Positions 2,705 to 64,000 of a stretch of 64,000 bases of DNA are shown piece after piece. This DNA comes from a virus: the IMG/VR virus record IMGVR_UViG_3300029305_006219; one strand, given 5' to 3'. The number at the start of each line of letters is the position of its first letter. Within the stretch, counting starts at the first letter, position 1. The notes below the pieces were generated by a model that searched no databases, was not told the origin of the DNA, and was given only the letters and a program-made list of their open reading frames with translations. Both the position numbers and the translations under genes were made by a program.

Positions 2705-3187
2705 TTAACTAATCCTTTCTGCGTATTGATTGGGAGAAGCCAATTTTACGCCAAGTATTTCATCATAATGTGACTCAGTATTTGGAATATAGCGCCCAAA
2801 TTTTATTATGATGTTTGAAAATTGTTTTAATTGAATTAATTCATTTTCAATCTCATCTTTATTATAACCTGTATAGATAATAATATCATCATTTATAGAA
2901 TAACATTCTCTAAAAACAAAGATAAGATTTAACAGGTCTTCAAATGTATCAAAAGGTTCTAGACCTTGGAAGCATATCGCGCGCGCGATAGGGTTGTTTC
3001 TATAAGCTTGTACTATTGAAGTGTTAGCAATTTCTTTATCAGGTGCGGCCACCAGTGCGCTATTTTGACACACTGGTTGGCCGCATTCACGATCGCATTT
3101 AAAACCTTTACAAATAGGCGTTTCTATTGTCATACAAGGAACTTTATAATTTACAAAATCTTCAAATATAATTCCTTTTATTTTCAT
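2705..3187 (-). CDS. nrdG: Anaerobic ribonucleotide reductase activating protein (NrdG-like radical-SAM activase)
   Basis: Sits immediately downstream of nrdD with ATGA overlap. IIIYTGYNKDEIENE and GLEP motifs resemble NrdG WVWTGY.LDEL and GGDP. The Cys cluster is non-canonical. Confidence 0.55.
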   Translation of the reverse strand: MKIKGIIFEDFVNYKVPCMTIETPICKGFKCDRECGQPVCQNSALVAAPDKEIANTSIVQAYRNNPIARAICFQGLEPFDTFEDLLNLIFVFRECYSINDDIIIYTGYNKDEIENELIQLKQFSNIIIKFGRYIPNTESHYDEILGVKLASPNQYAERIS

Positions 3188-6100
3188 TTATTAATAGGCT
3201 CCCATTTTCTCATTTTATATTCATTAGTTCTTTCTTTTGACCACGTCTTTATAGGGGTGTAAAAGCCAACGATACGAGTATATTCTGTTTCAACTGGTCG
3301 ACCACATACTGGACAAGTGCGTCCATAGAAGGCATGGTTATTATCACAAGCTTGAATCTTGGTATTAAAAGCAAAATATGTTACTCCTGCATCAGAGATA
3401 TAATTAACCATATCCCAAGCCTTATCAAAACTATCAAATGGGGCATCGATATTGGCGTGTAGGATCGAACCTCCATTGCAATATCCATCAAACTCTGCGG
3501 CGATACGTACGCGCTCGGCAAGGGTTGTTTGTATACCAAGCGGAATAAATTGATTACCATAAAGCGGTAAGTCAAAGATGCTCGCTTCCGGATAAAAGAA
3601 TTTGTCTTTTTTCATTAGCTTTGCGGCAGCCGACTCTCCGGGGATCTATTCAGTATTAACGTGATAATCGGCGCCTACCTCTGCAATAAATTCATCTGCC
3701 GTTTGACGTATAGTCTCAAAGATTCTTTTACCAAGCGACGAAGCATTTTCTGTATAGTAAACATTGCCAAATTCATCTGTACGAGTATAGCCAAAACGCT
3801 TCATTGTTTCATATACTCCGATAAAACCAATAGTATTATAAAGATGTTCAAAGTCGACTAACCCATTAGAAAAATTAGGTAATAGTCCTTTTTCAACATT
3901 ACGACGAATAATATTACGTACACAATGTAGTGCTTGAAGATTCAAAAGTGTCAACTTCTTCAATCCACATAGATATTCAAATTCATTAGCACTATCAAGA
4001 GCGAGGCGCGCGAGGTTGATTGTAGAGACTTTAACTGAACCGACTTTTAGTGCGGTACCTCCGATACTATTAAAATAACCTAGGTCTTTAATATCACTCT
4101 TCAAACGACAACAGTTAGAAAGTGAAGTTACTGAATCATCAATAAATAGGTTACTGTCAGACCAGCGCATATTGTGTTTAACTGCCCAGCGCGCAAAATC
4201 TTCATCTTGGAATTTACCTTCTTGTTTTAGTAGAGAGATTGAAAGTACTGGAAAAGTAAACATATTCTTGTCCCTGATATCAGCAACGGTTTCCATATAC
4301 CATTTTTGGAATTCAATAATTTCTTCTTCATAGTCAATCATAAATTCTCCATTAGGGAACTCACTGCCGCCAAATAAAGCTTCGTAGTAAGGACGATCAA
4401 ATACACTGGTATTAGTAAATGCAGATTGCGACCCATCGCGGACATAAGGTTGATTCACTGCGTATACAAAACGCTGGAAGTTTTGACGTGCATATTTCTC
4501 TCCATTTCCGCTACTCTTGATACCGAGATAGTCTTCTTCCATATCCTTATGCCAAAAGTAATACATATAAGGGATGAGATTAGGAAGTCCTACGGCGCCG
4601 GAGGAACGATTAGAAGCATAGCTAATAAACTCTTTAACAAAATCAACAAAAGTAGTTAAATGCTAAGCAGGCTCAGGATTAAAAGGTGCGCCAATAAAAT
4701 ATAGTCCTTTTTCAGCCAGGTCTTTCAGGTCATAAGCAAAACAATTATGAGATAGAATGTTGTTGCAAATAAAATGACCTGTTTTTGTTGTTAAGTCATA
4801 TACCTCAGGGCATTCATCAATATACTCTGAGTTATCAATAACTGAGACCCATCCATAGTTATATTCATATTGCTTGTTTTTAAAATTACCTTTACGAGTT
4901 AAAGGAATATATTTTTCAGCAATTTTAATACTTCCAATACGAGAAAAATATTCTTCGTTCGTTAAAGTGAAGCCAATCCCAAACATTGGTAACTTTTGTT
5001 CGAAGCTTCCAGCTCGATTATATCTAAATGGAGTGCGATCTCCTGCAAAAACCCCTTTGGAATGTAAATACATACTCAATTGATGGCATAGCGTTTCTGA
5101 GGCAATACGGATATGACAATGTCTATTTTTATATCCATCAATAGTACCATCGCCATCGATCATTCCCGCAATAATTCCATCCATAAATTCAGAAGGATAA
5201 GTCATGAAATATGATGGTAACTGCTTAGTTGCAGAAGTCTGACCTTTTAATAGTGAATTTAACCATTCTTCAAAAGGACTAACCTTTAAATAAATTTTTC
5301 TATCTCCACTTTCTGAATATGGAATATCATATTGGTCACAGATATATTTTAATTTTTCAGCTTGAGGAGAATCTAGTTTTTGAGCAATTACAAATTGACT
5401 ATTCAGACTATTTCCTTCGGAAAGAGCCATACCTAATATCCATCCTGTCTCTCTATTATAAGGAATTTGATATACAATTTCTTGATGACTTTCAGAATAT
5501 TTATTAGGCTGTATTGTAAAGACTCGATACTCACTAGTTACATCCTTTGCAGGAATATCTCCACAATCGGTAATAATAGGGTGATCTTCTGTTACAATTT
5601 GTGATAAACCATTTGCTAACTTGATAAAACGCATAGGTTTATTATTTGTGTGTTTAACTGCGCGAGTAATCTTAGTCCAACATTTTTCTCCAGTTTCTTC
5701 ATTAATATCAAGTATCTCGATATTTTTCGGGAAAAGTGCATTTTGTTCAATAGATACATCATATTTTTCTTCTGCTTCTGTATCCATATACAAAATATTT
5801 TCATACAAATTCTTAAGTGCAAAAGTGTATTCACGATGCACCTTGTCTCTTACTGTTACAAGTTCTTCACCCTTATAGCAGTAATGTTTAAAGGTCGAGG
5901 TATCAGCATCATGCATGTAGAGCTGACCAATCCATTCGGCGCGCAACCACTCATTTGCACGTTTAAAACCAAAATGTTTTTGCATCTCATAATGAATTTT
6001 ATTATAAGCTAATAATTTTCTATGAGGTTTTGGCATTTCGTTTAAGAGAGTTACAATATCTTTTTTACTAACATTACTATTGCCATCAATACTCGCGTCA

Positions 6101-6321
6101 GCTACGACTTTGGTATCGATAAATGAACTAATAAAATCTGTGTAACTTAATTGTTCATCAGCAAATCCATTAAGCTTTGCCATTTCAGTTCCAAATTCAT
6201 CTTGCATTTTGTTATAAGCAGTAACAAAATTTTTCTTTAATTTAACATTAACTTCCATATCTCCAATGATATCCTCCTGTTGTTTGTAAAAATCCTTGAC
6301 AGCATCGAGATATGTTTTCAT
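3184..6321 (-). CDS. nrdD: Anaerobic ribonucleoside-triphosphate reductase NrdD, intein-containing, read through 2 in-frame TAG codons
   Basis: ORFs 4663..6333, 3646..4566 and 3184..3615 are one reading frame separated only by TAG at 4663-4665 and 3646-3648. C-terminus has a CPVCG zinc site and a RIVGFYTP glycyl-radical motif. TGA stop overlaps the nrdG ATG. Confidence 0.85.
4744..5880 (-). mobile_element. Intein (about 379 aa) with LAGLIDADG homing endonuclease domain inside nrdD
   Basis: Starts CYKGEEL and ends ILSHN followed by +1 Cys (CFAYDLKDL, aligning with E. coli NrdD FNC-MLIDLKG). Contains LGMALSEGN and IAGMIDGDGTI dodecapeptide blocks. Confidence 0.7.
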
Positions 6322-6922
6322 GATGTATGCCAAGCTCTTTCTCTGCTTCTGCTAGAGATTTAAAGTTTTGATTTAGCTCCACACAATAAACTGGAGTAAC
6401 TCTTTTATCTTCAGATAGAGGAAGATTATTTGATAAATAATCTTCATAGTATGTCCAATGAAATTTATATGCAGTGTGTAATTTTCCACGACAACACGCA
6501 ATAATATTTGCATTAGCAAAACCCTTTAATCGTTCAATTTCTTTTGCGCTATCAAAAACCTTTTGTGTTTCTAAACATATAATTTTTCTTTTTGTTTTAC
6601 AACTATTACTCATTTTTTGACGAGATTCTCTTGAATATTCATTATTCAATCCGCCACTTTTTATATTATAGCCACTATTCACAGTATCATATTTTGTGAT
6701 AAGTTCTTCTTCTTTTTGATTAGCTTCCTGTAATGTTAAGTTCTCATATAAAATAGTCTATTCAAAATTATCCCATCCATATTTTTCAATAGCATGATAA
6801 AATTTAACACAGCCAGTATAGTTAGAGGGGTGACAGCGACGCGTGATATCTTTAGACTAACCAATATATTTTTTGCCATTTATTTTATTGGTATAACAAT
6901 AAATGCAATATTGATTATCCAT
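6248..6922 (-). CDS. GIY-YIG homing endonuclease (HE1) between nrdH and nrdD, 2 in-frame TAG
   Basis: N-terminus MDNQYCIYCYTNKINGKKYIG[TAG]SKDITRRCHP...YGWDNFE[TAG]TILYENL, then the C-terminus of ORF 6248..6682 with two C-x-x-G...GY.W.Y repeats. TAGs at 6857-6859 and 6758-6760. Confidence 0.8.
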
Positions 6923-25700: not shown

Positions 25701-26690
25701 TACCCTCTTTTTCAAGATATTTTAATGGGAATAGACTATATCTTCATCCATTTTAAACGGTGGATGTCATGCACTTCGATTTAAAGGATTTTCACCTACT
25801 TTTATATTATTATAAAAGCCCTACTCCTGTTGAGGAAATTTCATCCTCCAGTGGGATAGTCGTTGAACCTTCTCCTATTCGGAGCTTGGCTGCTGATTGC
25901 CCAATTTAATCAATTTTTAACATTCGCACTTAGATTTCTTTCATTCTTATGCTGTAGTTTGATTAACTCTAAGGGGTTTCCAGCAATTCACATGATTTGC
26001 TTAATGGATTGCTCCATTAAGGGCCTTATATATTTCATATTTTCGTCTCAACCGAGAGGCCTCGGTTGAATGTTCATAAATTTTATTTAAAATTTGTACA
26101 ACTGCAGCGCCTTCTTTATGAATTTGATAAGCAGAGGTTCCACAAGGACTTACTTTATTATCAAACTCTAAAATTTCTAGCATTTGTTTTGTGCAGATCT
26201 CAGTTTGACTGACAAAACTTAAACTAGGAATATTGTTTCTATCTTCTCTAATGTGAATACTACCATCTGCATCTAGCAATCCTCTTGCAAAATCATAAAT
26301 ATATTCATTAGGAATGTTTTCAAGGGGAATACTAAAAATAGAGGTTTTTGCAGGTACTATATTATATTGTGCTAAATAACGTTTTAACTCTGCCGAGTTT
26401 ATAGATACAGTTAAAGCATGACATCCAGTGTTATTAGTACGCTCTGTAATGGGCGCATTAGATTCAAAGAATGCTTGTAAATTTTCAAGCTGCTCTCTAT
26501 CTATATCTTTTAACTCAACTCTTACTCTGGCTTCATTTTTAGCTACATTTCCATCTCCAGCTAAAAATCCAAGCCAATAATATTTTTCATGAGGGTCTAT
26601 TTTAATGTTTGTTAAATTTAAAGGATATTTTCTCAAAAAACTTTCAACTCCTTCTTTAAGAGAGCGAAAATATGAAATAAAAATGTTAAG
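25700..26690 (-). mobile_element. Group I intron interrupting the AAA_24 ATPase gene and carrying a LAGLIDADG endonuclease ORF
   Basis: Minus-strand core elements: P-like AATTGCTGG (about 25950), Q-like AATCAGCAGCC (about 25890), R GTTCAACGACTA (25849-25860), S AAGATATAGTCT (25726-25737). Upstream exon ORF ends at a TAA at 26686. Boundaries are approximate. Confidence 0.6.
26001..26636 (-). CDS. Double-motif LAGLIDADG homing endonuclease (intron-encoded)
   Basis: LGFLAGDGNV and ARGLLDADGSI motifs. TTG start with an AAGGAG RBS. Confidence 0.75.
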   Translation of the reverse strand: MRKYPLNLTNIKIDPHEKYYWLGFLAGDGNVAKNEARVRVELKDIDREQLENLQAFFESNAPITERTNNTGCHALTVSINSAELKRYLAQYNIVPAKTSIFSIPLENIPNEYIYDFARGLLDADGSIHIREDRNNIPSLSFVSQTEICTKQMLEILEFDNKVSPCGTSAYQIHKEGAAVVQILNKIYEHSTEASRLRRKYEIYKALNGAIH

Positions 26691-41062: not shown

Positions 41063-41137
41063 TGGCAGGGGAGGTAGGAATCGAACCTACGTCTGTGGTT
41101 TTAGAGACCACGGTCTTGACCTTTCGACGACTCCCCA
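41063..41137 (-). tRNA. Amber suppressor tRNA, tRNA-Gln-like, anticodon CUA (reads UAG)
   Basis: Minus-strand sequence UGGGGAGUCGUCGAAAGGUCAAGACC GUGGU CUCUAAA ACCAC AGAC GUAGGUUCGAUUCCUAC CUCCCCU G CCA. The anticodon stem is 5 bp Watson-Crick and the loop is CUCUAAA. U1.U72, G2-C71, G3-C70 and the G73 discriminator follow the bacterial tRNA-Gln pattern. It closely parallels the tRNA-Gln(UUG) at 62245-62316. Confidence 0.75.
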
Positions 41138-43601: not shown

Positions 43602-44150
43602 TTAATCATTCTTTTGAATCTCCTTCCAATGCTCAGTAATCTCTTCAATAACTGTATCAAGTAGTACGGGTCTACAATCATGCGCATCCATATTTACGTT
43701 GTAGCAAAAAGAGTGTTCACACCACTTTGAAGTAGAGTGAGTGTGTCCATGTAAATTCCATGTAGCTAACCAACATTTGTCTTTTCCGTTGCCTGTAAGG
43801 GTAGGATAATGGCTAAGATAAAAACTTTTCTTTTTGTATTTTAACCTATATGCAAAATGAACATCGTATCCAAGTTCTTTATATATAGCAATTCGAGTAT
43901 CCGTGCAATGGTTGCCACAAACCACATGAATATGTCCTTTGAGTTGTTTAAGAGCGGCCGCCCCTTTTTCATTATCATTCATCATTAAATCGCCAAGAAT
44001 CCAGACATCATCTTCATGATCAACCAATTCATTCCATCTTTTAATAATTTCTTCGTTCATATGGTCTGGAGAAGTGAATCCTCGTGCTTCCCATACAAAT
44101 GGTTGAATATGGGATAGATGCAAATCGCTAGTTACATATATTTTACCCAT
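43602..44150 (-). CDS. Calcineurin-like metallophosphoesterase (candidate RNA/DNA 3'-phosphatase or 2',3'-cyclic phosphodiesterase)
   Basis: Motifs DLHLSH, GDLMMND, GNHC, GHTH. Confidence 0.65.
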   Translation of the reverse strand: MGKIYVTSDLHLSHIQPFVWEARGFTSPDHMNEEIIKRWNELVDHEDDVWILGDLMMNDNEKGAAALKQLKGHIHVVCGNHCTDTRIAIYKELGYDVHFAYRLKYKKKSFYLSHYPTLTGNGKDKCWLATWNLHGHTHSTSKWCEHSFCYNVNMDAHDCRPVLLDTVIEEITEHWKEIQKND

Positions 44151-44155
44151 ATTTT

Positions 44156-44368
44156 TTACATCCTTTCTATCATTTTATTTAGTTCATTTACTGCAAAATT
44201 ATAATTATTTAATATTCCTATCGCTTGTAGAATATCAGTATTACTTTTAGAAGAAACGCAATGCGTCTTAATACAACACTGCTGTTTATCATAGTCCCAC
44301 CAAGCGCAACGCTTTGCTTCACACTCTGTACTATGACCATATTGATTAGTTTTCATTGGACATTGCAT
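44156..44368 (-). CDS. Hypothetical Cys-rich protein
   Basis: 70-aa ORF. Confidence 0.3.
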   Translation of the reverse strand: MQCPMKTNQYGHSTECEAKRCAWWDYDKQQCCIKTHCVSSKSNTDILQAIGILNNYNFAVNELNKMIERM

Positions 44369-44372
44369 TTAA

Positions 44373-44849
44373 TCACCACTCTCTAATACGAGTAATTTTA
44401 GTAAAACCTTCATCTCTTGTAGGTGCCTCCATTTGAAAGAACATTCTACGAATGACTCCACGCGGCACTCGTGCGCGCCCTTCGCGCAGTTCGTTTCTTA
44501 TAAGTGCAGTTTCAAGAGGAACCTCTATTACTATTATTTCTATTTCATCTGCAAATTTAGCGACTTTATTAAGAACTTTAGCGCGCGCCTTTTTATTAAG
44601 ATGAGTCGCATCTGCTATTGCAATTTCATCTACTATAAGACTGCCAATAATTTGATAAATAAACTTATCAAAAACTTCATCTTCATAGTCAAAATACTCG
44701 CCGCCTCTTTTATCAAGCAATTCAAAACGAATTGCATCTCTTGATACAGGTATTATATCTGGAAAATTATTTTTTATCCAAGTACTTTTACCAGAACCTG
44801 GAACTCCGCACATCATAATTAATTTACTCATTCTTCTATCTCCTTCCAA
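44373..44849 (-). CDS. P-loop polynucleotide kinase-like protein (AAA_33/Pnk kinase domain)
   Basis: Walker A motif MMCGVPGSGKST, small kinase fold of about 158 aa, adjacent to the phosphoesterase and near the RNA ligase. Confidence 0.5.
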   Translation of the reverse strand: MEGDRRMSKLIMMCGVPGSGKSTWIKNNFPDIIPVSRDAIRFELLDKRGGEYFDYEDEVFDKFIYQIIGSLIVDEIAIADATHLNKKARAKVLNKVAKFADEIEIIVIEVPLETALIRNELREGRARVPRGVIRRMFFQMEAPTRDEGFTKITRIREW

Positions 44850-45160
44850 CTAATCCATATTTTTATTTCTACGGGGATTATTGTTCCCGATCCTTTGATC
44901 TCTTGGAGTTCAACACTATATCCAAAATCCGTAAGAAGATCAATTAATACATCTTCAAATACTGAGAATGTAAACTCTTTTTCCCAAAAGACTTCTTTAG
45001 TCCATTTATAGGAAACATGGTATTCTCCTTCACTTGCTGCTTTTTTAATACGCGGATTAATGAAACGATTAATTTCATCTATTGCAAACTGCTTTGCGCG
45101 TTCTCTTTCGCGACTATTAAAACTATCTGCTATTCTTTTAGCTTCTATTGCACCTATCAT
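44828..45160 (-). CDS. Hypothetical protein
   Basis: 110-aa ORF. Confidence 0.3.
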   Translation of the reverse strand: MIGAIEAKRIADSFNSRERERAKQFAIDEINRFINPRIKKAASEGEYHVSYKWTKEVFWEKEFTFSVFEDVLIDLLTDFGYSVELQEIKGSGTIIPVEIKIWISWKEIEE

Positions 45161-45184
45161 TTTTATTCCCTTCTTTTCATTTCT

Positions 45185-45262
45185 TTCTTATTTTATAATT
45201 TATTATAACATATTTTTTTAATAAAATCAAAAAAGCCGCTAAAAAGCGGCTTTTGTTGTTTT
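45185..45262 (-). promoter_or_regulatory. Intergenic terminator plus sigma-A promoter module (repeated family)
   Basis: Minus strand: hairpin AAAAGCCGCTTTTTAGCGGCTTTT, then TTGATT-17 nt-TGTTATAAT. Confidence 0.5.
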
Positions 45263-46062
45263 TAGATAATATAGAATTTATTTGTACCTGCGCTAAGAGT
45301 GAAAGTTCCTGCTTCACCATATTGTACAAATTTAGACAAATCAGTGATGATAGTTCCCGTTTTCCATATCGCAGCATCCATTGTTATTTCTTCGGCGCCA
45401 AGTGTAACAACACCAGTATTAGCAATACTTAAAGTTGTTTCTGTTGTTTCTATTGTAGGCACTCCTTCAATTTGAACGAAAATAGCTGTTCCTGTAGGAA
45501 TTGTCATTGTGACATCTTCTTTATCATAAATCTCAAGAGTAAATAATACATCCTTATCTTCTTCTGTAATACCAGGCATCGCATCAAAAGTGAAAGTAAA
45601 AGCAGAAGGATCTCCTGAAGGAGCCATTGCTAAATTAAGGTTAGATTGTAATTTTGCTCTTGGAATTACAATATATGCTGGATGATCATTACCAGATTCA
45701 TCTCTAAATAAAGTATCAGCAGTAATTTTATAATATCCAGCAAAAGATGTTGTTTTAGATGTAAATTTAATACCATTATTAGTATCTTTTACATCTGCTC
45801 CAGTTAAGGCATAAAAGCTTTCCATTGTAATAAGTGCATCTTCAACGGTAAAGGTAAGTGTTTTTTCACCTTCCCAAGCCATTAAACGAGAGTTTCCTTT
45901 TCCTCCTTGTGCATAAACGGTAGTAGAAGCACCTTCAAGAGTAGAAGTTTTGGCTGTCTCAATGTCGAATTGCGCTGGACCAACACCAGAAAGTTTTTCT
46001 AAGTGCATATCGCATACTTCACGAATACCAAATCTCATATGTATAATCTCCTTTATTCTCAA
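45262..46062 (-). CDS. Hypothetical protein, possibly structural (Thr/Gly-rich beta-type)
   Basis: 266-aa ORF. Confidence 0.3.
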   Translation of the reverse strand: MRIKEIIHMRFGIREVCDMHLEKLSGVGPAQFDIETAKTSTLEGASTTVYAQGGKGNSRLMAWEGEKTLTFTVEDALITMESFYALTGADVKDTNNGIKFTSKTTSFAGYYKITADTLFRDESGNDHPAYIVIPRAKLQSNLNLAMAPSGDPSAFTFTFDAMPGITEEDKDVLFTLEIYDKEDVTMTIPTGTAIFVQIEGVPTIETTETTLSIANTGVVTLGAEEITMDAAIWKTGTIITDLSKFVQYGEAGTFTLSAGTNKFYII

Positions 46063-46143
46063 ATTTTATAGTAGTTAGCGGCAAGCTATTTATCTATAAA
46101 AATATGAAAATAAAGGAGATTATTTTAATTTATTTTGACCTTT

Positions 46144-47580
46144 TTATTCTTCAGTAACCTCTTGAGCCTCTTCCATATCAGGTGCGGCGGCCTCGGCTTT
46201 GACCAGCCCTTCTAGACACTTGAAACTAAAGTTCTTGTGTTTGTATGCGGCGAACTTAGGTCTATTGATTATACGCACAACTACTCCTTCACGGACATGG
46301 GTCTTTCCAATAGGATCGGCGCCATCATAAAATTCTTCTGCAATCTTCATTACAAGGTCACCAAGAGTCATTCCCTCTTTAAGAAGATAATCGTGATCAT
46401 AGCCATCGGGTGCTACAAAATGCGCGCGATCAGCGCTTAATATAACTTTTCCAAATACAGGCACAGTCTTAACCCCCATCTGCTCGCAACGGTAACGCAT
46501 GAGGTCAGGAGTGTACTCGACTATCTCACCATCCTCGTTAGTCATTGTCATACGGTAAACATAGATGTCTGACTGAGGGATGCTATAATCTATAGTGGGC
46601 ATGACGTTAGGTTCATCATATTCAGTAACTTTAAAACCAAAAGGCTCGCATCCATAGGAGAAACGAGTAATCTCGCCATACTGCTTGATGAATTCCTTAT
46701 CATTAAGCTTCTTGTTAGAAGCATCACCCATGATAGGAGCACCATTGGTTGTGAATCCTACTACTTCATAGTAGACCGTTTCTCCTTTATTCAGCTTATC
46801 CTCGAATATTTTAGAGTGTTGTTCACGAAACTCGTTACTTCCGTAAAAACCGCCATCATAATTTTCAAGAACTACGCGGCGGGTGCCAGAAACATAACCC
46901 CAATCATAAATAGGAGTGCCTTCCTTGCGAGTAAGCTTCTTCCAAAAGCTGCGCTTATATCCTTTAAGAGTAGGTAGACATCCTGTTCTTTGACTAGTTC
47001 CATGCATCTTAAGCGTGATCTCAATTTCATCACCTACTTTAAAAGCGCCGAGATTATATGCCAACTGCTCAGTATCCGCATGCTCTTTGAAGAGAGGTGC
47101 AGTAGGAACTTTCTTTTTACGAGTTCTATTGCCTTCAGTTACAGTACCGCGGCGAATGTTGGTACGAGGTATATACTTGCAGCAGATTTCGTGTCCGTTA
47201 ACTAGACCATCAATTATATCTCCAGCTTTAAGATGAGCGGCGGCCGCCCCATCCTCAAAGCAATAGTCAAGCGCTGATAGAGGAAGGAAAAGACCGTCAC
47301 TCTTCTCACTGCGCAGACGAATTGCGGTTACATTTCTTTTATCTGGGTCCATGTATCCACCAATCTGGTTTCCTGCATCATCTTTCTTACGGAGTAGGTT
47401 ATTATGCTCAGCAAATTCTACCGATACCTGACCATCAGTGGGTAGATAAATACCCACTTGACCTTCAAAATAGCTAGTGGATACGCATACGGTATTACCA
47501 AAGCAATCTCCAAGAAGCAGTCTATCTGCATTAGGATGCTTACGCACATTTTTCAGTGTAGTTATATATGCTTTATACAT
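46144..47580 (-). CDS. ATP-dependent RNA ligase (Rnl2-like nucleotidyltransferase) with N-terminal tRNA-binding (Myf/CsaA-like OB) domain
   Basis: N-terminal KHPNADRLLLGDCFGNTVCV resembles the tRNA-binding OB-fold motif. LKMHGTSQRTG matches the KxHGT(N/S) motif I of Rnl2-type ligases. 478 aa. Confidence 0.6.
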   Translation of the reverse strand: MYKAYITTLKNVRKHPNADRLLLGDCFGNTVCVSTSYFEGQVGIYLPTDGQVSVEFAEHNNLLRKKDDAGNQIGGYMDPDKRNVTAIRLRSEKSDGLFLPLSALDYCFEDGAAAAHLKAGDIIDGLVNGHEICCKYIPRTNIRRGTVTEGNRTRKKKVPTAPLFKEHADTEQLAYNLGAFKVGDEIEITLKMHGTSQRTGCLPTLKGYKRSFWKKLTRKEGTPIYDWGYVSGTRRVVLENYDGGFYGSNEFREQHSKIFEDKLNKGETVYYEVVGFTTNGAPIMGDASNKKLNDKEFIKQYGEITRFSYGCEPFGFKVTEYDEPNVMPTIDYSIPQSDIYVYRMTMTNEDGEIVEYTPDLMRYRCEQMGVKTVPVFGKVILSADRAHFVAPDGYDHDYLLKEGMTLGDLVMKIAEEFYDGADPIGKTHVREGVVVRIINRPKFAAYKHKNFSFKCLEGLVKAEAAAPDMEEAQEVTEE

Positions 47581-51639: not shown

Positions 51640-54477
51640 TCACGAGTTATAATCGTTGTTTGCTATTATCATATCAGTTAGTTTTACAAAACCCTGAGAC
51701 ATTGAGTTGATGTCGACGTAAAACTGATTATCATAATAATTTGTATCGATAACCTGATTATATTCATCAACATAAAATCCGCTTGTGTTATATGGAGTGT
51801 TAATCCACTCTTGCCAAGTCATACCTTCTAAGGCGGTGTATGATGCTCCGTTAACGGTAAAGGTAATTATAGGCAATGTTCTTGTAAGAGTATATGTGTG
51901 ATTTGCTACGATTGTATCACTTGTTTTAACATATTTATATATGATGTTACCATCCTCATCTTCGTCTTCTCTCAAACATATAAGATTTCCCGTCATGTCC
52001 TCACAAACATATCCAGGTATCAATGGATCACTCCAATAATTTTCAGAAGGAACATAGTAACTGCCGTCGCTGGCGTTCATAAAATCAGCCCAAGTCATAC
52101 CCTCGGTGACTGTATATGATTCATCTCCTGCATCGTTACCGTCAATATAGAATGTTATTGTGCTAGGTGTTGGCTCTTCTTCGTTTTCAAAATTAAAGTA
52201 AATATCTATTTGAGTATCTGTTGAAGTCGTATAATCAATTGTAAGGTTATTGTTTTCAATATCGATAGAGTTAATATTTGAAGTTAAATTATCAATACCA
52301 TTTAAGGTTATTAATTCATTGTTCTACGAACCCATATTTATTGTTTTAGTATTTTCAGTTGCAAGAAGCTCTATTGATATTGGGCTTGTTATTTCTACTT
52401 CAATCCCTACAGCATCGATATAATAGTTACATCTTCCTATAATAATATCCAAATCACGACAATGTCTACCGCTACCATCATTAAGCCATACTGCGCCGAT
52501 ATATCCATCTCCATCTTCATCGATAATAGATTCTGCTACACAGTTTTCTTCTCCGTTAACAGTAAGAGAGTTCCAAATAACAAAATCCTTTGTATTATAC
52601 GCGCTATCGCACCATTCATACCACGTCATACCAGGCTCAGCCATGTATGTTATTCCTTCAATAGTGAAAGTGATTTCAAGTGTAATATATGAATCATCTA
52701 TATAATATACACCATTTTCTGTAATTGTATCATTATAAGATACCATCATCTTGATATCATCGCTATTGTAGTATACTGCGCCGATATATCCATCTCCATC
52801 TTCATCAGTTGCAGATGTTGCTATTAAGTCTTGATTATATGAGCTATTATAAGGAACAAAACCTGCTTTATTATATGAGCTATTACACCAATCGCTCCAA
52901 ATCATATTCCTATTAGATGTGTATTCTGTTCCATTAATAGTAAATGTTATTGTACTTGTTTCGTTTTCAAAACTAAAGTAAGCATCTATTTGAGTGTCGG
53001 TTGAAGTTGCATAATTAATTGTAAGTTCATTATTTTCATTAATATTAATAGAGTTGATATTTGAAGTTAAATTGTCAATACCATTTAATGTTAATCTATT
53101 CTATGAATCTATATTTACTGTTTTAGTATTTTCAGCGGCAAGAAGCTCTATTCTCATTGGACTTGTTGTTCCTGCTGGTATGTCTCCAATTGTGTATGTA
53201 TAATTTGCCATAATAAGACTACTTGGGAAAACTGGCTTACTACCATCATTGCAATATACCGCTACTTGTGATCCCTCTTCTACCACAAAACCATCTTGAA
53301 TAATATAGTATGTACCATATTCACTATTCACCCAGTCTTGCCAAGTCATACCTTCTTCAAATCTATAGAACTCGTCTCCCGTTAGATTATCTTCGATATA
53401 AAATATTGAGGTTGAAATAGGTAATGAATCTGAAACTATATATGAATGATTTATTCTAATAACATCACTGGGTTTAACAGCAGTGTACTCATTTAAAAGC
53501 ACATATCGACCTGTAGAATTTTCTATTATATAATCATTTTGAACTACATATTCTGCATCATCATTACTTGAAATACTATCAATCCATTCTTGCCAAGTCA
53601 TACCACTCTCGGCGAAATATGATTCTTTTTGCATATCATTTCCTTCAATATAAAATGTTATCATACCTACAATATAATCTCTATAAACACTCCAATTTGT
53701 TGCTGCTTTCCAATCATCAACAAGTTCATAGGGAACTCTAATTTTACAATTTGAAGGAATGTTTAAAAAAGCACTTGTATTAGCAAGAGTTGGTATACTT
53801 GTATGAAAAGAAAAATCGTAATATTGCATTGAAGTACAGTTGGCAAATGCGCTTGATCTAATAGTTGTAACGCCATTAGGAAAATTCATTTGTGTAAGAG
53901 CCTTACACCCATAAAAAGCTTGCTCTCCAATTGCTGTAATATTACTAGGTAGAGTTATGCCTGAAAGAACTTTACAACCGCTAAACATGCGATATCCAAT
54001 CCAGGAAATATTACTGGGTAAAGATATATCTATAAGAGATGTACAATTATAAAATGCTTCATCTCCTATTTTTGTAATACTATCGGGTAGACTTAAACTC
54101 TTAAGCTTAGCACAATTAGTAAAAACACCTACTCCAAGTTGTGTAATAGTGTTAGGAATAATTATATTTGCATTTGACTCAAGTCCATGACAATTTGAAA
54201 AAGCATAATCACCAATATAAGTAATATTATTTGGTATATTTATTTTTGTAAGATATGTGCAGCCCTCAAAAGCAGCTCGTCCTATTTTTGTTATATTAGC
54301 TAAATCCTGTGTAGTTATTTCAGTAATTGTTCTATCAATTATTTTAGCTAGTTTACTTTGTTCTTCTGTATCTGCATTTAAAGCCGTTACAATAATATCA
54401 CGATCGCAATATTTACCTGCTGTTTTTAAACGAATGGAAGATCCGCTTGTTACATTTATATTATGTTCAGCCATCAT
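51640..54477 (-). CDS. BspA-type leucine-rich-repeat tail fiber/receptor-binding protein with C-terminal tandem repeats, 2 in-frame TAG
   Basis: ORFs 53101..54477, 52324..52905 and 51640..52098 are one frame joined by TAG 53101-03 and TAG 52324-26. LRR_5 repeats (NITYIGDYAFSNC...). Repeated (R/S)IELLA(A/T)ENTKT(V/I)N(I/M)(D/G)S and GMTWQEW blocks. Confidence 0.6.
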
Positions 54478-54794
54478 TCTACCTCCCCATTATAAACAGG
54501 TAGGGCATTTATTACTGCTGAAACTATTTCATTTTTATCTTCATCTGTCCAATAATCCGTTCCTTTTACAGGAGTATAACCATCGTCACCTTTCTCTCCA
54601 GTTAATTCTAGAAAAGGAAGATTTCCTACCTTAGTCGTTCCATCTCCTATTTTTAATCGAGGCTTAGATTCTCCTCCTTTACCGTCAGAATAAATAATTA
54701 ACTCTCCTTTTAAAGGTATAAAAGTCGTAGCTAATTCCCATTCTGCGGCCGTACCTATTTTATGCTAGATACGAGCATTAATTTGTTTTGCCAT
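54474..54794 (-). CDS. Tail fiber N-terminal anchor-domain protein, 1 in-frame TAG
   Basis: MAKQINARI[TAG]HKIGTAAEWELATTFIPLKGELIIYSDG...RLKIGDGTTKVGNLPFL, plus a collagen-like GEKGDDG. TGA overlaps the ATG of the LRR gene. RBS AAAGGAG. TAG at 54765-67. Confidence 0.55.
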
Positions 54795-59989: not shown

Positions 59990-61100
59990 GAGGGCGCTTA
60001 AGATTGTCAATTGAATTTCCTGTGGAGTAGTTAATTGTATCCACACTTTTCCCAACCCTACCAAGTACTATCTCTTGCGAGACCGTGCAAACGGCTTCTT
60101 TTGACAGAGCGCTGTGTTTGGGGCAGAGGCTCTCTTAAGCATTATTATAGATTAACTTGATATTTGCGCAGTGATCACCTGATTCCTGCTCCTATTGATC
60201 TTTTCCGAAGGTGCGACCTTCGCACAGTTCTGCATATCAAGTGAAAATGGGAAGAAACGAAGACCTTTCCCGTAGTCCTCGTTTAGCGACACTAACGGAT
60301 TTCCAAGGGCGGAATGTGTCAGTTACCCGAGCTTATGACCCAGCCACAGAGGTTTGTCAGAGTATGCTCTCCGCAACACTTTTGCATCTTCAAATGTCGA
60401 CGACTTACAGGCGTGCGCCGCCTTGTCTCAGAAAGGAGGTGAGACTATAATTGAAGAAATTAGTCGCTTTTAAGGCTCACAGCGTCGCCACGAGAAGGCT
60501 TTCTTCTTGACGCCATATGGAGCACCTGATTGGATTTGGACCAATGTGGACAGAGTCTCGCGCTTACAAGGCGCGTGCAATCGACCGCTATGCGACAGGT
60601 GCATATATTAAAGAGGTGACAGCTTTAGGTCAGCCAACCGCTCATTGTTTTCTTTTGGGCGTGGTATTTGCTTACCATCCTCAATTCGAGTAAATAACCG
60701 TTTCATCTTTCAATCTACATCTGGCTTAGACATTTTTAATTGGTCTACCAGAACCTCGCCACATCCTCGGCGCCAATCGCACCCTACTTATTTCACCGTA
60801 GCTACTCTTCGGGTGGACGAAATCCACGATTTTCTCGGCATTTGATTTCAGTTTATTTTCGTGGGCGCTCTCTCAAGCCTACTCTGGATTATCCAGCAGT
60901 ATTCGCCTCAAAATACTCAATGAAATCAAGGTTATTCACTTATAGATAAACTTTTCATCAATATTAAGGATATTATAACACTGGCATTTATCAATCCCTG
61001 TTATAAAAACCCTGACACTTTTGTGCTCGTGCTGCGAGGTCAGCTCGTGGTTAGCACTCTTATAATCCTGAATGCTCCAGAAGTCATCTACATTTGCTCA
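59990..61100. ncRNA. GC-rich non-coding block between tRNAs; candidate large structured RNA (GOLLD/ROOL-like?)
   Basis: About 1.1 kb with no ORF over 80 aa in any frame even with TAG treated as sense. GC content is clearly above the flanking genes, and there are many local hairpins. No family could be assigned from sequence alone. Confidence 0.25.
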
Positions 61101-62163: not shown

Positions 62164-62244
62164 ATTTAAATAGCTCCTTTTTATACTTATTATCAACTTT
62201 TAGCTTAACCCATCGCACACCACGTGGAGGTAGTTGATTAAGTG

Positions 62245-62316
62245 CGACCTGGGGTGGCTGGATTTGAACCAGCGGGTGTCAGAGTCAAAGTCTGATGCCT
62301 TGCCACTTGGCTACAC
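62245..62316 (-). tRNA. tRNA-Gln (UUG)
   Basis: UGGGGUG...anticodon loop CUUUGAC...GCUGGUUCAAAUCCAGC CACCCCA G. U1-A72 and G73. CCA is not encoded. Confidence 0.8.
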
Positions 62317-62561
62317 CCCAATAATATCTTAATTACATTAACTAATAGGAGTGATTTGCACTATTCCAAAGGCGATTACTCAACCTTCCTCCTTTAATCT
62401 TGTACAAGATTTGTGAACAACCTAAGTTACCGTTTCACTACGGAGTTAATGTTATTACGATTAGCGACCCCTTTCGGGCAATTTTGAATCGAGAATTTGT
62501 TGATGGAAACTCAGGTCAGGAGTTTATATTGCATCGCTTTATTTCTTACATATATATTATA

Positions 62562-63007: not shown

Positions 63008-63161
63008 TGGTGAGCCAAGCGAGATTCGAACTCGCGACCCCGTGATTAATGGTGCTTGAGGTTAGATTCGAACTAACAACCTAAAGCCGACTAAGCCCCA
63101 GACTTTACCAATTAAACATACTCAAACAAGTCACGTGCTCTTCCATCTGAGCTACTGGCTC
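63008..63161 (-). tRNA. tRNA-Lys (UUU) interrupted by a 78-nt insertion in the anticodon loop
   Basis: Exon parts GAGCCAG UA GCUC AGAUGGAA GAGC A CGUGA CUU | 78-nt insert | UUAA UCACG GGGUC GCGAGUUCGAAUCUCGC UUGGCUC A CCA. After removal of the insert the sequence closely resembles E. coli tRNA-Lys and the loop reads CUUUUAA. Confidence 0.6.
63050..63127 (-). other. tRNA-like insertion element (acceptor/T-arm minihelix with encoded CCA) inside the tRNA-Lys anticodon loop
   Basis: GUUUGAG...GUUAG UUCGAAU CUAAC CUCAAGC A CCA. The 7-bp acceptor pairing and T-arm are perfect. No canonical anticodon arm could be folded. Confidence 0.45.
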
Positions 63162-63169
63162 ATATAATT

Positions 63170-64000
63170 ATTTACTTAGTTAGCTTTTTGAATAGCTCTA
63201 TATTTTCGCTTGAGTTTATTGATTATATTTCCATTAGCGGCATCGCGCTAAAGAATACTAATACGATTAAGTATTGCAAGTTCTCTATTTATCATTTTGC
63301 TTTATTTCCTTTCTTATCTTTATTACATAAATATTATATCATATTTTTTAATAAAAATCAATGAAAACCTTTGGAGTTTGCTTTTGCCTAATGGTGGTTA
63401 GGACAAAAGCTCTCTGCAACTCATTTTTCTTTGCTACGAGTAAACACAATAGATTGATAGGTTTTTACTAAGCTACCTTCAAACTTAATGGTGGAGAATA
63501 TGAGTAACGATCTCATCTGAACTTCTGCTTGCAAAGCAGACGACCACTCCATGCAGTCCCATTCCCCATAGGAAAGAGAGGGAGAGTTTTTATATCCAAC
63601 AAGAGAATCACTCTCCAAACTCTGATGTTTTACGAGGCGCCGAGTAATGCTTGTTGGCAGCATCAAGGCGTTGATTTAAAATGGCAGAAAATGTCGGTGC
63701 TGCCCCGCTACTCCGCATCCCAAATGCGGTGTGTTACTGTTACACTACATTCTCTATATTCCAGCTTTTAGATGCGGGAAGCTGGGCCCGCGCCTTTCAT
63801 AGCCTTGTTGGATAAACCTGCGCTATTACTAAGCTATCTTTATAAATCTCGCACTTCATCTTGGAGGCGAAACTCCAGCGGATGTTTGGCCCACCGCTGC
63901 CTTTCGGATATAAGTCTCACCGAGTATAACCAGCACTGTTTATATAGCGTCTGCCGCCTCGCTCTCTACTCTCTCTGTTGATTAGGTGAGAGGAATATCC
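63170..64000. ncRNA. GC-rich non-coding block at the window end; candidate structured RNA
   Basis: No convincing ORF, high GC relative to the phage genes, and contiguous with the tRNA cluster. ORFs 63421..63666 and 63529..63981 look spurious. Confidence 0.2.

Follow-up and report, generated by a model that had tools for sequence, protein, structure and literature searches.

Analysis of the window, a stretch of 64,000 nucleotides (nt) from the IMG/VR virus record IMGVR_UViG_3300029305_006219, revealed three minus-strand genes encoding an Rnl5-type ATP-dependent RNA ligase, a stand-alone polynucleotide 5′-kinase of the Pnk clade and a small dinuclear metallophosphoesterase. These three genes are a conserved module. 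We propose that the module is an RNA healing-and-sealing set and that, in this lineage of TAG-recoding gut phages, it acts most probably on tRNAs transcribed from the phage genome itself, a reading short of direct proof to which we assign a probability of roughly 0.5. The proposal is built on the enzyme families, the conservation of their catalytic residues, the linkage of their genes, the occurrence of split tRNAs with selected exons, and a junction between a ribozyme and a tRNA. The ligase gene occupies positions 46144-47580 (478 amino acids, aa), the kinase gene 44373-44831 (152 aa) and the phosphoesterase gene 43602-44150 (182 aa). An earlier note on this DNA had pointed to three open reading frames (ORFs) here, and the ORF calls confirmed their coordinates and placed all three on the minus strand. 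The identities it had suggested for the products, an RNA ligase, a Pnk-clade kinase and a calcineurin-type metallophosphoesterase, were supported by family and profile matches.

The ligase matched the phrog_968 'RNA ligase' family over its full length, including the N-terminus (expectation value, E, 1.5e-56), and in NCBIfam the best model was that of the Deinococcus radiodurans RNA ligase, TIGR02306 RNA_lig_DRB0094 (E 4.4e-9 over residues 9-197). An N-terminal OB domain (about residues 1-125) is followed by a linker and a nucleotidyltransferase domain carrying motif I, K191-MHGTS. The motifs HPNADRL and KMHGTS, which the earlier note had read in this protein, were found at residues 15-21 and 191-196, and we take HPNADRL to be typical of tRNA-binding domains of the Trbp111/EMAPII type. 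A single-sequence search of the PDB with the ligase gave no significant match (T4 Rnl2 appeared at E 0.7), and a PDB search with a profile of close homologs was likewise empty. A profile of 80 diverse representatives (34-66% identity) reached the Naegleria gruberi RNA ligase NgrRnl (5cot, E 7e-9), with residues 5-193 aligned to NgrRnl 8-179. The alignment ran from the OB domain through the linker to motif I and placed K191-M-H-G on the nucleophile segment K170-L-D-G. In the same search, PheRS-beta and a methionine-tRNA ligase chain appeared as weak, non-significant matches. An OB domain ahead of the nucleotidyltransferase domain is the defining trait of the Rnl5 family, which is already known from bacterial viruses (PMC5397189). 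Judged by its sequence, the window ligase is thus a member of the Rnl5 (DraRnl/NgrRnl, 'DRB0094') family with a known architecture: OB domain then nucleotidyltransferase domain, no C-terminal appendage, and the motif I lysine on K170 of NgrRnl, as in DraRnl (DR_B0094) and NgrRnl (5COT). The label 'Rnl2-type' in the earlier note was imprecise, given the TIGR02306, NgrRnl profile and Foldseek matches. Nor is the joining of a ligase to a tRNA-binding domain a non-standard architecture, as had been claimed: it is the defining Rnl5 layout, and many cultured phages have homologs annotated 'RNA ligase'.

The window ligase differs from the characterised Rnl5 enzymes in several respects. It is about 140 residues longer (478 aa versus 342 for DraRnl and 339 for NgrRnl), with the extra residues within the nucleotidyltransferase half; only its N-terminal domain and motif I align significantly to NgrRnl; HPNADRL is missing at the aligned NgrRnl position; and its gene is linked to those of a Pnk kinase and a phosphoesterase. 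It scored 35.7 bits on TIGR02306 against an equivalog cut-off of 151 bits, indicating a divergent, longer phage subfamily rather than an equivalog of DraRnl. The Pfam RNA_ligase model matched the window protein only below threshold (E 2e-4, 22 versus 27 bits), close homologs bear the Pfam PF21189 PHA02142 OB-fold domain, and no window protein matched RNA_lig_T4_1. Across 80 diverse homologs, residues K191, S196, E272, G275, E431, G432, K447 and K449 were invariant. The invariant E272/G275, Y342, E431-G432 and K447/K449 have the spacing expected for motifs III, IIIa, IV and V, in a C-terminal half that is poorly modelled and has no significant alignment to NgrRnl (second stretch, -0.7 bits). 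After K449 only 29 residues follow, an acidic tail, so that the nucleotidyltransferase domain bears no C-terminal appendage. The AlphaFold2 (AF2) model, built on a shallow alignment (71-85% identity), was poor (mean predicted local distance difference test, pLDDT, 54.6); the N-terminal beta-domain was its confident part, and the nucleotidyltransferase half was mostly below 50. In a Foldseek search with this poor model, the best 13 matches were all NgrRnl (E about 1e-7), with T4 Rnl2 behind (E 0.015); the TM-scores to NgrRnl (0.18-0.26) are not meaningful given the model quality. Published Rnl5 enzymes join duplex nicks if the 3′-OH strand is RNA (PMC4408790, PMC5397189), and from its motifs we predict that the window enzyme would likewise join strands via lysyl-AMP at K191. 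The family is large, with 2022 representatives at 50% clustering. Homologs in cultured phages amounted to 379 records annotated 'RNA ligase', 296 of them mycobacteriophages, and the best was that of Bacillus phage Kirov (47.5% identity).

A different role for the ligase was guessed at by the authors of a study on tRNA-associated 'theta' ribozymes of phages, who wrote that a DRB0094-family ligase might aminoacylate tRNAs (PMC10879173). In this scenario, the ligase would modify tRNA 3′ ends by aminoacylation or a CCA-type addition, and the kinase and phosphoesterase would be unrelated neighbours. The OB domain does bear a weak likeness to the PheRS-beta, MetRS-C, EMAPII and Trbp111 modules: faint Foldseek matches to the ligase model included the OB domains of Trbp111, EMAPII, MetRS-C and PheRS. 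However, neither the motif I lysine nor any candidate residue of motifs III, IV and V varies in the family, its characterised members join strands, and the persistent association of the ligase gene with those of a Pnk kinase and a phosphoesterase fits end-joining rather than aminoacylation. We therefore regard tRNA 3′-end modification as very improbable.

The kinase matched AAA_33 (E 5.8e-17) and phrog_505 'polynucleotide kinase', as well as NCBIfam TIGR04075 bacter_Pnkp (E 5.6e-12), the last over positions 9-154 only of the 851-position model, that is, its N-terminal kinase segment. Its PDB relatives were headed by L-seryl-tRNA(Sec) kinase (E 2.8e-8) and included the kinase of CthPnkp (4jst, E 1.2e-6), T4 Pnk (1ltq/1ly1) and Pnkp1 (4xrp); L-seryl-tRNA(Sec) kinase and CthPnk both act on RNA or tRNA. 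The P-loop GVPGSGKST fell on the P-loops of 4jst and 1ly1, the segment S-R-D-A-I-R was aligned to S-S-D38-F-C-R41 of CthPnk and N-R-D-D-Y-R of T4 Pnk, and the Arg-rich lid REGRARVPRGVIRR fell on Arg-containing segments of both enzymes. D38 of CthPnk is the residue changed in the D38N Michaelis-complex structures of a report whose title names general acid-base catalysis (PMC3902929). The window protein is the kinase domain alone, with no fused 3′-phosphatase domain. Carrying the catalytic residues of T4 Pnk and CthPnk, it is a predicted 5′-OH polynucleotide kinase, a prediction that leaves its substrate unsettled. The earlier note had asked whether domain searches would turn the ligase into a DNA ligase or capping enzyme and the kinase into a dNMP kinase without RNA-repair relatives; the ligase belonged to neither of those families, and the kinase relatives include CthPnkp, T4 Pnk and Pnkp1.

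The third protein matched phrog_547 'phosphoesterase' (E 1.6e-42). It had no Pfam match itself, and homologs at about 50% identity passed Metallophos_2. The full metal-binding set DxH/GD/GNH/H/GHxH is present, and D9, H11, D54, N80, H81, H114, H136 and H138 were invariant in 62 homologs. With a confident AF2 model (pLDDT 96), the nearest solved structure was the uncharacterised Aquifex protein aq_1665 (1xm7), found by profile (E 3e-12) and by Foldseek (E 1.5e-10, TM 0.72). Further folds were MJ0936, YfcE and LpxH, and lambda phosphatase was at rank 12. We rejected the designation 'Pnkp-type phosphatase', as neither the profile search nor the fold search brought up a Pnkp phosphatase chain, and aq_1665, MJ0936 and YfcE were the closest proteins. 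No window protein matched HAD_PNKP in a search that does detect this domain in the Pnk of phage Whirlwind. The dinuclear metallophosphoesterases CthPnkp and lambda phosphatase have 2′,3′-cyclic phosphodiesterase activity (PMC2190708). By analogy with these two enzymes, and from its gene linkage, the window protein is a candidate 2′,3′-cyclic phosphodiesterase or 3′-phosphatase.

We then surveyed 118 viral or metagenomic loci carrying a relative of the ligase (43-78% identity), with up to 10 kilobases (kb) on each side. A kinase homolog was present in 87 of them (74%), always on the same strand as the ligase, downstream of it in 82 of the 87 and at a median gap of 1.3 kb. The phosphoesterase occurred in 58 (49%), of which 32 had it in tandem with the kinase and 14 directly upstream of the ligase. 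In the closest relatives, whose ligase is 79% identical, the order is as in the window: sigma factor, ligase, tube-like protein, kinase, phosphoesterase, one gene, DUF5662 and RNase H, with the kinase and phosphoesterase genes sharing a 4-nt overlap. The description of three neighbouring genes in the earlier note therefore holds in that the genes are close and linked across the 118 loci; they are not contiguous, with three other ORFs between them. These interspersed ORFs, together with a phosphoesterase family that is widespread without the ligase, are what one would expect if three unrelated accessory genes had come to lie side by side by chance. Against this, a same-strand kinase, mostly downstream, lay within 10 kb in 74% of the 118 loci, versus about 14% expected at random (a rough estimate for genomes of about 140 kb). 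Chance neighbourhood was already disfavoured, and we consider it the least probable of all explanations.

The same survey bears on a role in DNA. In that case, the ligase would seal nicks with a ribonucleotide on the 3′-OH side, and the kinase and phosphoesterase would clean 5′-OH and 3′-phosphate DNA ends as helpers of replication or repair. DraRnl and NgrRnl need only an RNA 3′-OH strand at a duplex nick, and deletion of DraRnl renders Deinococcus sensitive to ionising radiation and delays genome reassembly (PMC5397189). An RNase H gene lies 1.8 kb past the phosphoesterase in the window, as would suit such a helper. In two more distant relatives (L001 and L002, 7617-13070), the genes on either side of the ligase encode an NAD-dependent DNA ligase (LigA) and a nuclease resembling RecJ, and up to 10 kb from the ligase there is neither a kinase nor a phosphoesterase. 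This setting suggests that phages may differ in the pathway to which the ligase contributes. However, LigA, RecJ and RNase H were found in only 12, 7 and 5 of the 118 loci, compared with 87 for the kinase, and a DNA function gives no account of the association of the ligase with tRNA-linked ribozymes or split tRNAs described below. We consider it unlikely.

In other phages, the same ligase family stands near a Pnk-type kinase that has another partner. In Kirov (L006, 8326-9318), the kinase is fused to an HD domain and lies beside the ligase; in Mycobacterium phage Whirlwind (L007, 1011-1946), it is fused to a HAD_PNKP domain, about 3 kb from the ligase. The ligases of these phages share the PHA02142 OB and RNA_ligase domains with the window family, whereas the window kinase stands alone beside a separate metallophosphoesterase gene. 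That one kinase type is combined with three unrelated phosphoesterase folds (HD, HAD_PNKP and metallophosphoesterase) argues for an end-healing role, and it looks like non-orthologous replacement of the 3′-healing enzyme across three phage lineages. A distant homolog of the window ligase is also present in the Lak megaphages. In Lak-A1, the gene for this homolog is 12 kb away from one for a phosphoesterase homolog, and neither a kinase nor a tRNA was found in the 41 kb examined.

The second line of evidence concerns the tRNA genes. As the earlier note had stated, the window encodes an interrupted tRNA-Lys(UUU), and we found it to be real, at 63008-63161 on the minus strand, with an Rfam tRNA score of 50.1 bits across 151 nt and at a distance of 15.4 kb from the ligase. 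Its anticodon loop contains a nested tRNA-like insert of 78 nt (63050-63127, minus strand) that, searched alone, scores 31.4 bits, above the gathering threshold of the Rfam tRNA model. It shows a 7-bp acceptor stem (GUUUGAG/CUCAAGC), a T-arm (GUUAG-UUCGAAU-CUAAC), a GG-containing D-loop and a 3′-ACCA. Its removal in silico leaves a 76-nt tRNA-Lys(UUU) with an encoded CCA and the loop CUU|UUAA, and the predicted spliced junction reads GACUU|UUAAUCACG. ARAGORN called the gene Thr(UGU), displacing the intron by 1 nt. We rejected this reading: boundaries at G1 and ACCA give a Lys-like body, the same rule holds in all other cases, and the window already has a tRNA-Thr(UGU).

We scanned the ligase-linked loci for genes of the same design, which had to contain a terminal 7-bp stem with NCCA, flanking anticodon-stem halves, and a tRNA recognised by ARAGORN after in-silico excision. 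In 2.4 Mb, 18 split tRNAs were confirmed, the window tRNA-Lys included. With 13 other trinucleotides in place of CCA, the scan returned 0 each, except for one that returned 1. Other intron calls made by ARAGORN in L015 and L025 appeared to be merged neighbouring tRNAs and failed the excision test. The outer tRNAs were Lys-UUU (7), Gln-UUG (4), Leu-UAA (3), Ile-UAU (3) and Arg-UCU (1); all of them carry U34, versus 57% of 325 uninterrupted tRNAs. Some inserts are complete tRNAs, namely a Phe-GAA within Arg-UCU, an amber suppressor CUA within Ile-UAU and a CAU tRNA within Lys; others are minihelices of 47-49 nt. Besides the window, split tRNAs were found in L011, L012, L015, L027, L053, L060-L063, L065, L069, L072, L093, L100 and L127-L135.

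The insert lies after nt 34, 35 or 36, and excision from the first base of the nested stem to CCA always gives a 7-nt loop, indicating that the nested structure determines the boundaries. Because of the same variation in position, we rejected a sequence-specific anticodon nuclease as the sole cutter. We also compared 10 spliced outer tRNA-Lys sequences from different phages. They form one cloverleaf in which 15 of the 21 pairs show compensatory changes, some of which join exon 1 with exon 2, and pairing fails in a single cell of 210. The outer exons thus covary across the split, which indicates that they are selected as whole tRNAs and that the halves have to be joined.

As for the link between split tRNAs and the ligase, four of the first six split cases lay within 10 kb of it, in loci that had themselves been found through the ligase. 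Searching IMG/VR from the tRNA side with two Lys-specific patterns gave 11 contigs, all of the same nested design. Within a few kb around each of these tRNAs, the ligase was seen in at least 4 contigs, only a kinase in 1 (L135) and only the phosphoesterase in 1 (L011), and the other 5 were not assessable. Both lists of ligase-bearing contigs, one from related loci and one from a motif I DNA pattern, are incomplete, as one contig with a ligase seen directly was missing from each. In the complete genome of phAss-1 (OQ749652.1; L136-L138), a TAG-recoding gut phage, we found 36 tRNAs, none of them split, and no ligase. These observations agree with a connection between the ligase and split tRNAs and fall short of proof. 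The paper on Lak megaphages by Devoto et al. described 'enigmatic' tRNA introns that possibly encode a tRNA; we found nothing in the literature on nested tRNAs, minihelix introns or the function of phage DRB0094 ligases beyond that paper and Kienbeck et al.

In two loci, the amber-suppressor tRNA nested in tRNA-Ile(UAU) was located at L061 450-526 and L072 2517-2591, with the anticodon loop GUCUAGC. Production of a recoding tRNA would in this way be physically coupled to the cutting of another tRNA. The window itself has a suppressor tRNA with the anticodon CUA (41063-41137, minus strand; labelled 'Pyl' by ARAGORN). Moreover, two long frames, at 3184-6372 and at 51640-54489 (minus strand), are unbroken over 1063 and 950 codons only with TAG readthrough. 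The suppressor tRNA and these frames indicate partial, code-15-like TAG recoding, as in phAss-1 and the Lak phages. The three module genes contain no internal TAG codon and stop at TAA or TGA, so that recoding leaves their gene calls unchanged.

The third line of evidence is a candidate ribozyme adjoining a tRNA. A candidate minimal HDV-like (hepatitis delta virus-like), 'theta'-type ribozyme was identified at 62181-62248 on the minus strand as a full-length match to RF02682 with 37 bits, below the Rfam gathering score of 44 (E 2.7e-4 in a 5.5-kb region and 1.5e-5 in a 301-nt search). Folded manually, it has P1 GUCGCAC/GUGCGAU, P2 AUCAACU/AGUUGAU, P3 ACC/GGU, P1.1 GG and J4/2 AGCUAAA. The catalytic position is A in the Rfam alignment and C (AGCUAAA) in the manual fold, which lacks P4 and has a 7-bp P2. 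A structural descriptor recovered the element and gave 0 matches in control flanks, and the control on its catalytic base had no discriminating power. The element begins right at the end of tRNA-Gln(UUG) (62249-62320, minus strand), the only window tRNA without an encoded CCA, which ends at the discriminator and is followed by ribozyme G1 at 62248. In theta ribozymes, cleavage falls within +/-1 nt of the tRNA 3′ end, and the tRNA is usually CCA-less (PMC10879173); the tRNA-Gln junction has both features. A second HDV-like ribozyme, at about 60452-60526 on the minus strand, is probable with low confidence. It begins some 3 nt after the CCA of tRNA-Thr(UGU), matches the CPEB3 family at E 0.085, below the Rfam gathering score, and can be folded manually into P1 GGCGUC/GACGCU, P3 GCC/GGC and P2 GAAGAAA/UUUCUUC. 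The descriptor found two further tRNA-adjacent ribozymes, in the ligase loci L024 and L028.

Kienbeck et al. (2024) reported that 'RNA ligase, DRB0094 family' is 140-fold enriched in phage genomes with tRNA-associated theta ribozymes and occurs in 54.5% of them, and that the CCA-adding enzyme is 250-fold enriched in these phages (PMC10879173). Like those gut phages, the window combines a DRB0094-family ligase with a candidate HDV-like ribozyme that starts right after a CCA-less tRNA. Neither the theta-ribozyme paper (PMC10879173) nor the Lak paper raises a cyclic-phosphate problem, a kinase or a phosphoesterase, or proposes that the ligase rejoins split tRNAs. The chemistry of the cut is relevant in this respect. 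HDV-type self-cleavage leaves a 2′,3′-cyclic phosphate on the upstream product and a 5′-OH on the downstream one. A ribozyme-cut tRNA would therefore need a phosphoesterase before CCA addition or charging.

We infer the activity of each enzyme, the identity of the substrates and the makers of the cuts, and on this basis the module could work as follows. The kinase would convert 5′-OH to 5′-phosphate ends, the metallophosphoesterase would open and remove 2′,3′-cyclic or 3′-phosphates to give 3′-OH, and the Rnl5-type ligase would join 3′-OH and 5′-phosphate through K191-AMP. At ribozyme-cut tRNA 3′ ends, the phosphoesterase would remove the cyclic phosphate ahead of CCA addition or charging. In the split tRNAs, the nested element would be cut out by tRNA-end processing, with RNase P acting at its 5′ side and a cut after CCA at its 3′ side. 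Bacterial RNase P recognises an acceptor/T minihelix with 3′-RCCA, and cleavage immediately behind CCA is a property of some RNase Z/BN enzymes. The outer halves would be kept together by the acceptor and anticodon stems and then rejoined by the ligase, and the kinase and phosphoesterase would be required if the cuts leave 5′-OH or cyclic-phosphate ends. In its fullest form, this would amount to protein-based tRNA splicing in a phage: release of the inner tRNA would cut the outer one, an Rnl5-type ligase with a tRNA-binding-like OB domain would rejoin it, and the kinase and metallophosphoesterase would heal ribozyme or nuclease ends. We put this complete scenario forward tentatively, as clearly less probable than the proposal as a whole.

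Several points weigh against a function of the module on the phage's own tRNAs. The analysis brought up no enzyme that would cut after the nested CCA. RNase P and RNase Z-type cuts produce 3′-OH and 5′-phosphate ends that need no healing, and the split-tRNA route thus accounts for only part of the module. Breaks within an anticodon loop of 7 nt are classically sealed by Rnl1, not by Rnl5. Rnl5 enzymes, for their part, are known to act on duplex nicks with an RNA 3′-OH strand, not on loops (PMC4408790, PMC5397189). The ligase family is also found in many phages without known split tRNAs, such as mycobacteriophages, which indicates that rejoining tRNAs is not its sole role, and the joining of the halves could fall to a ligase of the host, for example RtcB. 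The phosphoesterase family is present in 1024 phage records, versus 379 for the ligase, often without the ligase, and no RNA function is known for the solved structures closest to it. In phAss-1, the phosphoesterase and a weak kinase homolog stand about 1.3 kb apart without a ligase. The association data carry limits of their own: the 118 loci were found through the ligase and come largely from related phages, so that the counts are not independent events; the Lys-specific patterns were derived from the same phages, so that the 11 contigs, 5 of them not assessable, are also related to the ligase-bearing clade; and in the window, the split tRNA is as far as 15.4 kb from the ligase. Finally, the ribozyme next to tRNA-Gln is a sub-threshold match, and only 3 tRNA-adjacent ribozymes were recovered by the descriptor in total; the published enrichment of the ligase with ribozymes was not independently reproduced.

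The earlier note had favoured another explanation, in which the module mends tRNAs of the host or the phage after a host nuclease of the PrrC, RloC or colicin type has cut their anticodon loop. The three predicted activities are exactly those that ribotoxin damage calls for, and a full healing set fits cyclic-phosphate/5′-OH breaks better than RNase P-type cuts. The kinase relatives include the repair kinases CthPnkp, T4 Pnk and Pnkp1; a kinase, a metallophosphoesterase and a ligase make up the domain content of bacterial Pnkp (PMC3675462); and pairs of Pnk and ligase are found repeatedly in cultured phages for which no split tRNAs are known. However, the ligase is of the Rnl5 type rather than the Rnl1 type that seals anticodon loops, with no RNA_lig_T4_1 match, and such counter-defence leaves unexplained both the co-occurrence of the ligase with split tRNA genes and its 140-fold enrichment in phages with tRNA ribozymes (PMC10879173). 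We consider it viable, and less probable than a function on the phage's own tRNAs. Maturation of the phage's own tRNAs and repair of tRNAs cut by host nucleases are roles that could coexist, as they are not mutually exclusive.

Comparison with characterised repair systems places the module among known kinds of enzymes in a new arrangement. The resemblance to T4 Pnk/Rnl1 and to bacterial Pnkp/Hen1 suggested in the earlier note stands for the kinase, which has relatives in both, and fails for the ligase type and the gene organisation, as well as for the phosphatase type of T4. With T4 Pnkp and Rnl1, the window shares a phage-encoded kinase, phosphatase and ligase, a kinase homologous to T4 Pnk and a link to tRNA-Lys(UUU); it differs in having a metallophosphoesterase instead of a fused HAD/DxDxT domain and an Rnl5 instead of an Rnl1 ligase. 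With CthPnkp, it shares the same three predicted chemistries and the same two healing folds, a P-loop kinase and a dinuclear metallophosphoesterase. Nevertheless, CthPnkp is one kinase-phosphatase-ligase polypeptide whereas the window has three separate genes (Hen1 was not searched for), the window ligase is of the Rnl5 type and not the C-terminal ligase of Pnkp, and the phosphoesterase is nearest to aq_1665, MJ0936 and YfcE. If the proposed role is right, the module would also resemble fungal and plant Trl1, in which a ligase, a kinase and a cyclic phosphodiesterase rejoin tRNA halves after removal of an anticodon-loop intron (PMC6379707). The window enzymes belong to another ligase clade and another phosphodiesterase fold, and the 'intron' is a CCA-ending tRNA or minihelix. 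The enzymes and the pairing of a ligase with Pnk in phages are thus of known kinds; what is new is the combination of a stand-alone kinase and a stand-alone metallophosphoesterase with a long Rnl5 variant, and the context of split tRNAs and a ribozyme.

We also inspected the ORFs between the module genes and other features of the window. Two ORFs lie between the ligase and the kinase on the minus strand. The first (45262-46062, 266 aa) is virion-structural-like, matching phrog_2729, with PF27173 YomU_Tube in relatives. This tube-like protein gene is surrounded otherwise by genes for transcription and nucleic-acid enzymes, and it is present only in the closest relatives (L003 and L004). The second (44828-45160) encodes 110 aa. 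The kinase ORF as listed extends to a TTG at 44849 (158 aa); its probable start codon is an ATG at 44831 that overlaps, as ATGA, the stop codon (TGA) of the 110-aa ORF upstream. Between the kinase and the phosphoesterase there is a Cys-rich ORF of 70 aa (44156-44368, minus strand), with gaps of only 4 and 5 nt. It had no family match and is missing in relatives, where the kinase and phosphoesterase genes overlap. Elsewhere in the window, a group I intron was identified at 25713-26068 on the minus strand (Rfam RF00028, 78.2 bits, a full-length model match). The tRNA callers differed at two minus-strand sites: ARAGORN called a 79-nt tRNA-Ala(UGC) at 63489-63567 that had no Rfam match at the gathering score, and Rfam placed a weak tRNA of 35.7 bits, without an encoded CCA, at 63686-63754, where ARAGORN made no call.

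The physiological function of Rnl5 ligases has been called "uncharted" (PMC5397189), and this locus makes both their in vivo role and the puzzle of the tRNA-in-tRNA introns directly testable. If a function on the phage's own tRNAs is not confirmed, the module would be a well-supported, ordinary phage RNA repair kit of a known type. If it is confirmed, the tRNA transcripts would be the first natural, physiological substrate for the Rnl5 ligase family. To our knowledge, this would also be the first tRNA intron system in the bacterial and phage world that is ligated by an enzyme and does not splice itself. Such a system would explain the 'enigmatic' tRNA introns of the Lak phages and add an enzyme-ligated route of tRNA splicing to bacterial viruses. 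Furthermore, it would connect RNA repair enzymes with the way in which abundant phages of the human gut control the switching of their genetic code; the output of suppressor tRNA could there be coupled to that of other tRNAs during the switch to TAG-recoded late genes.

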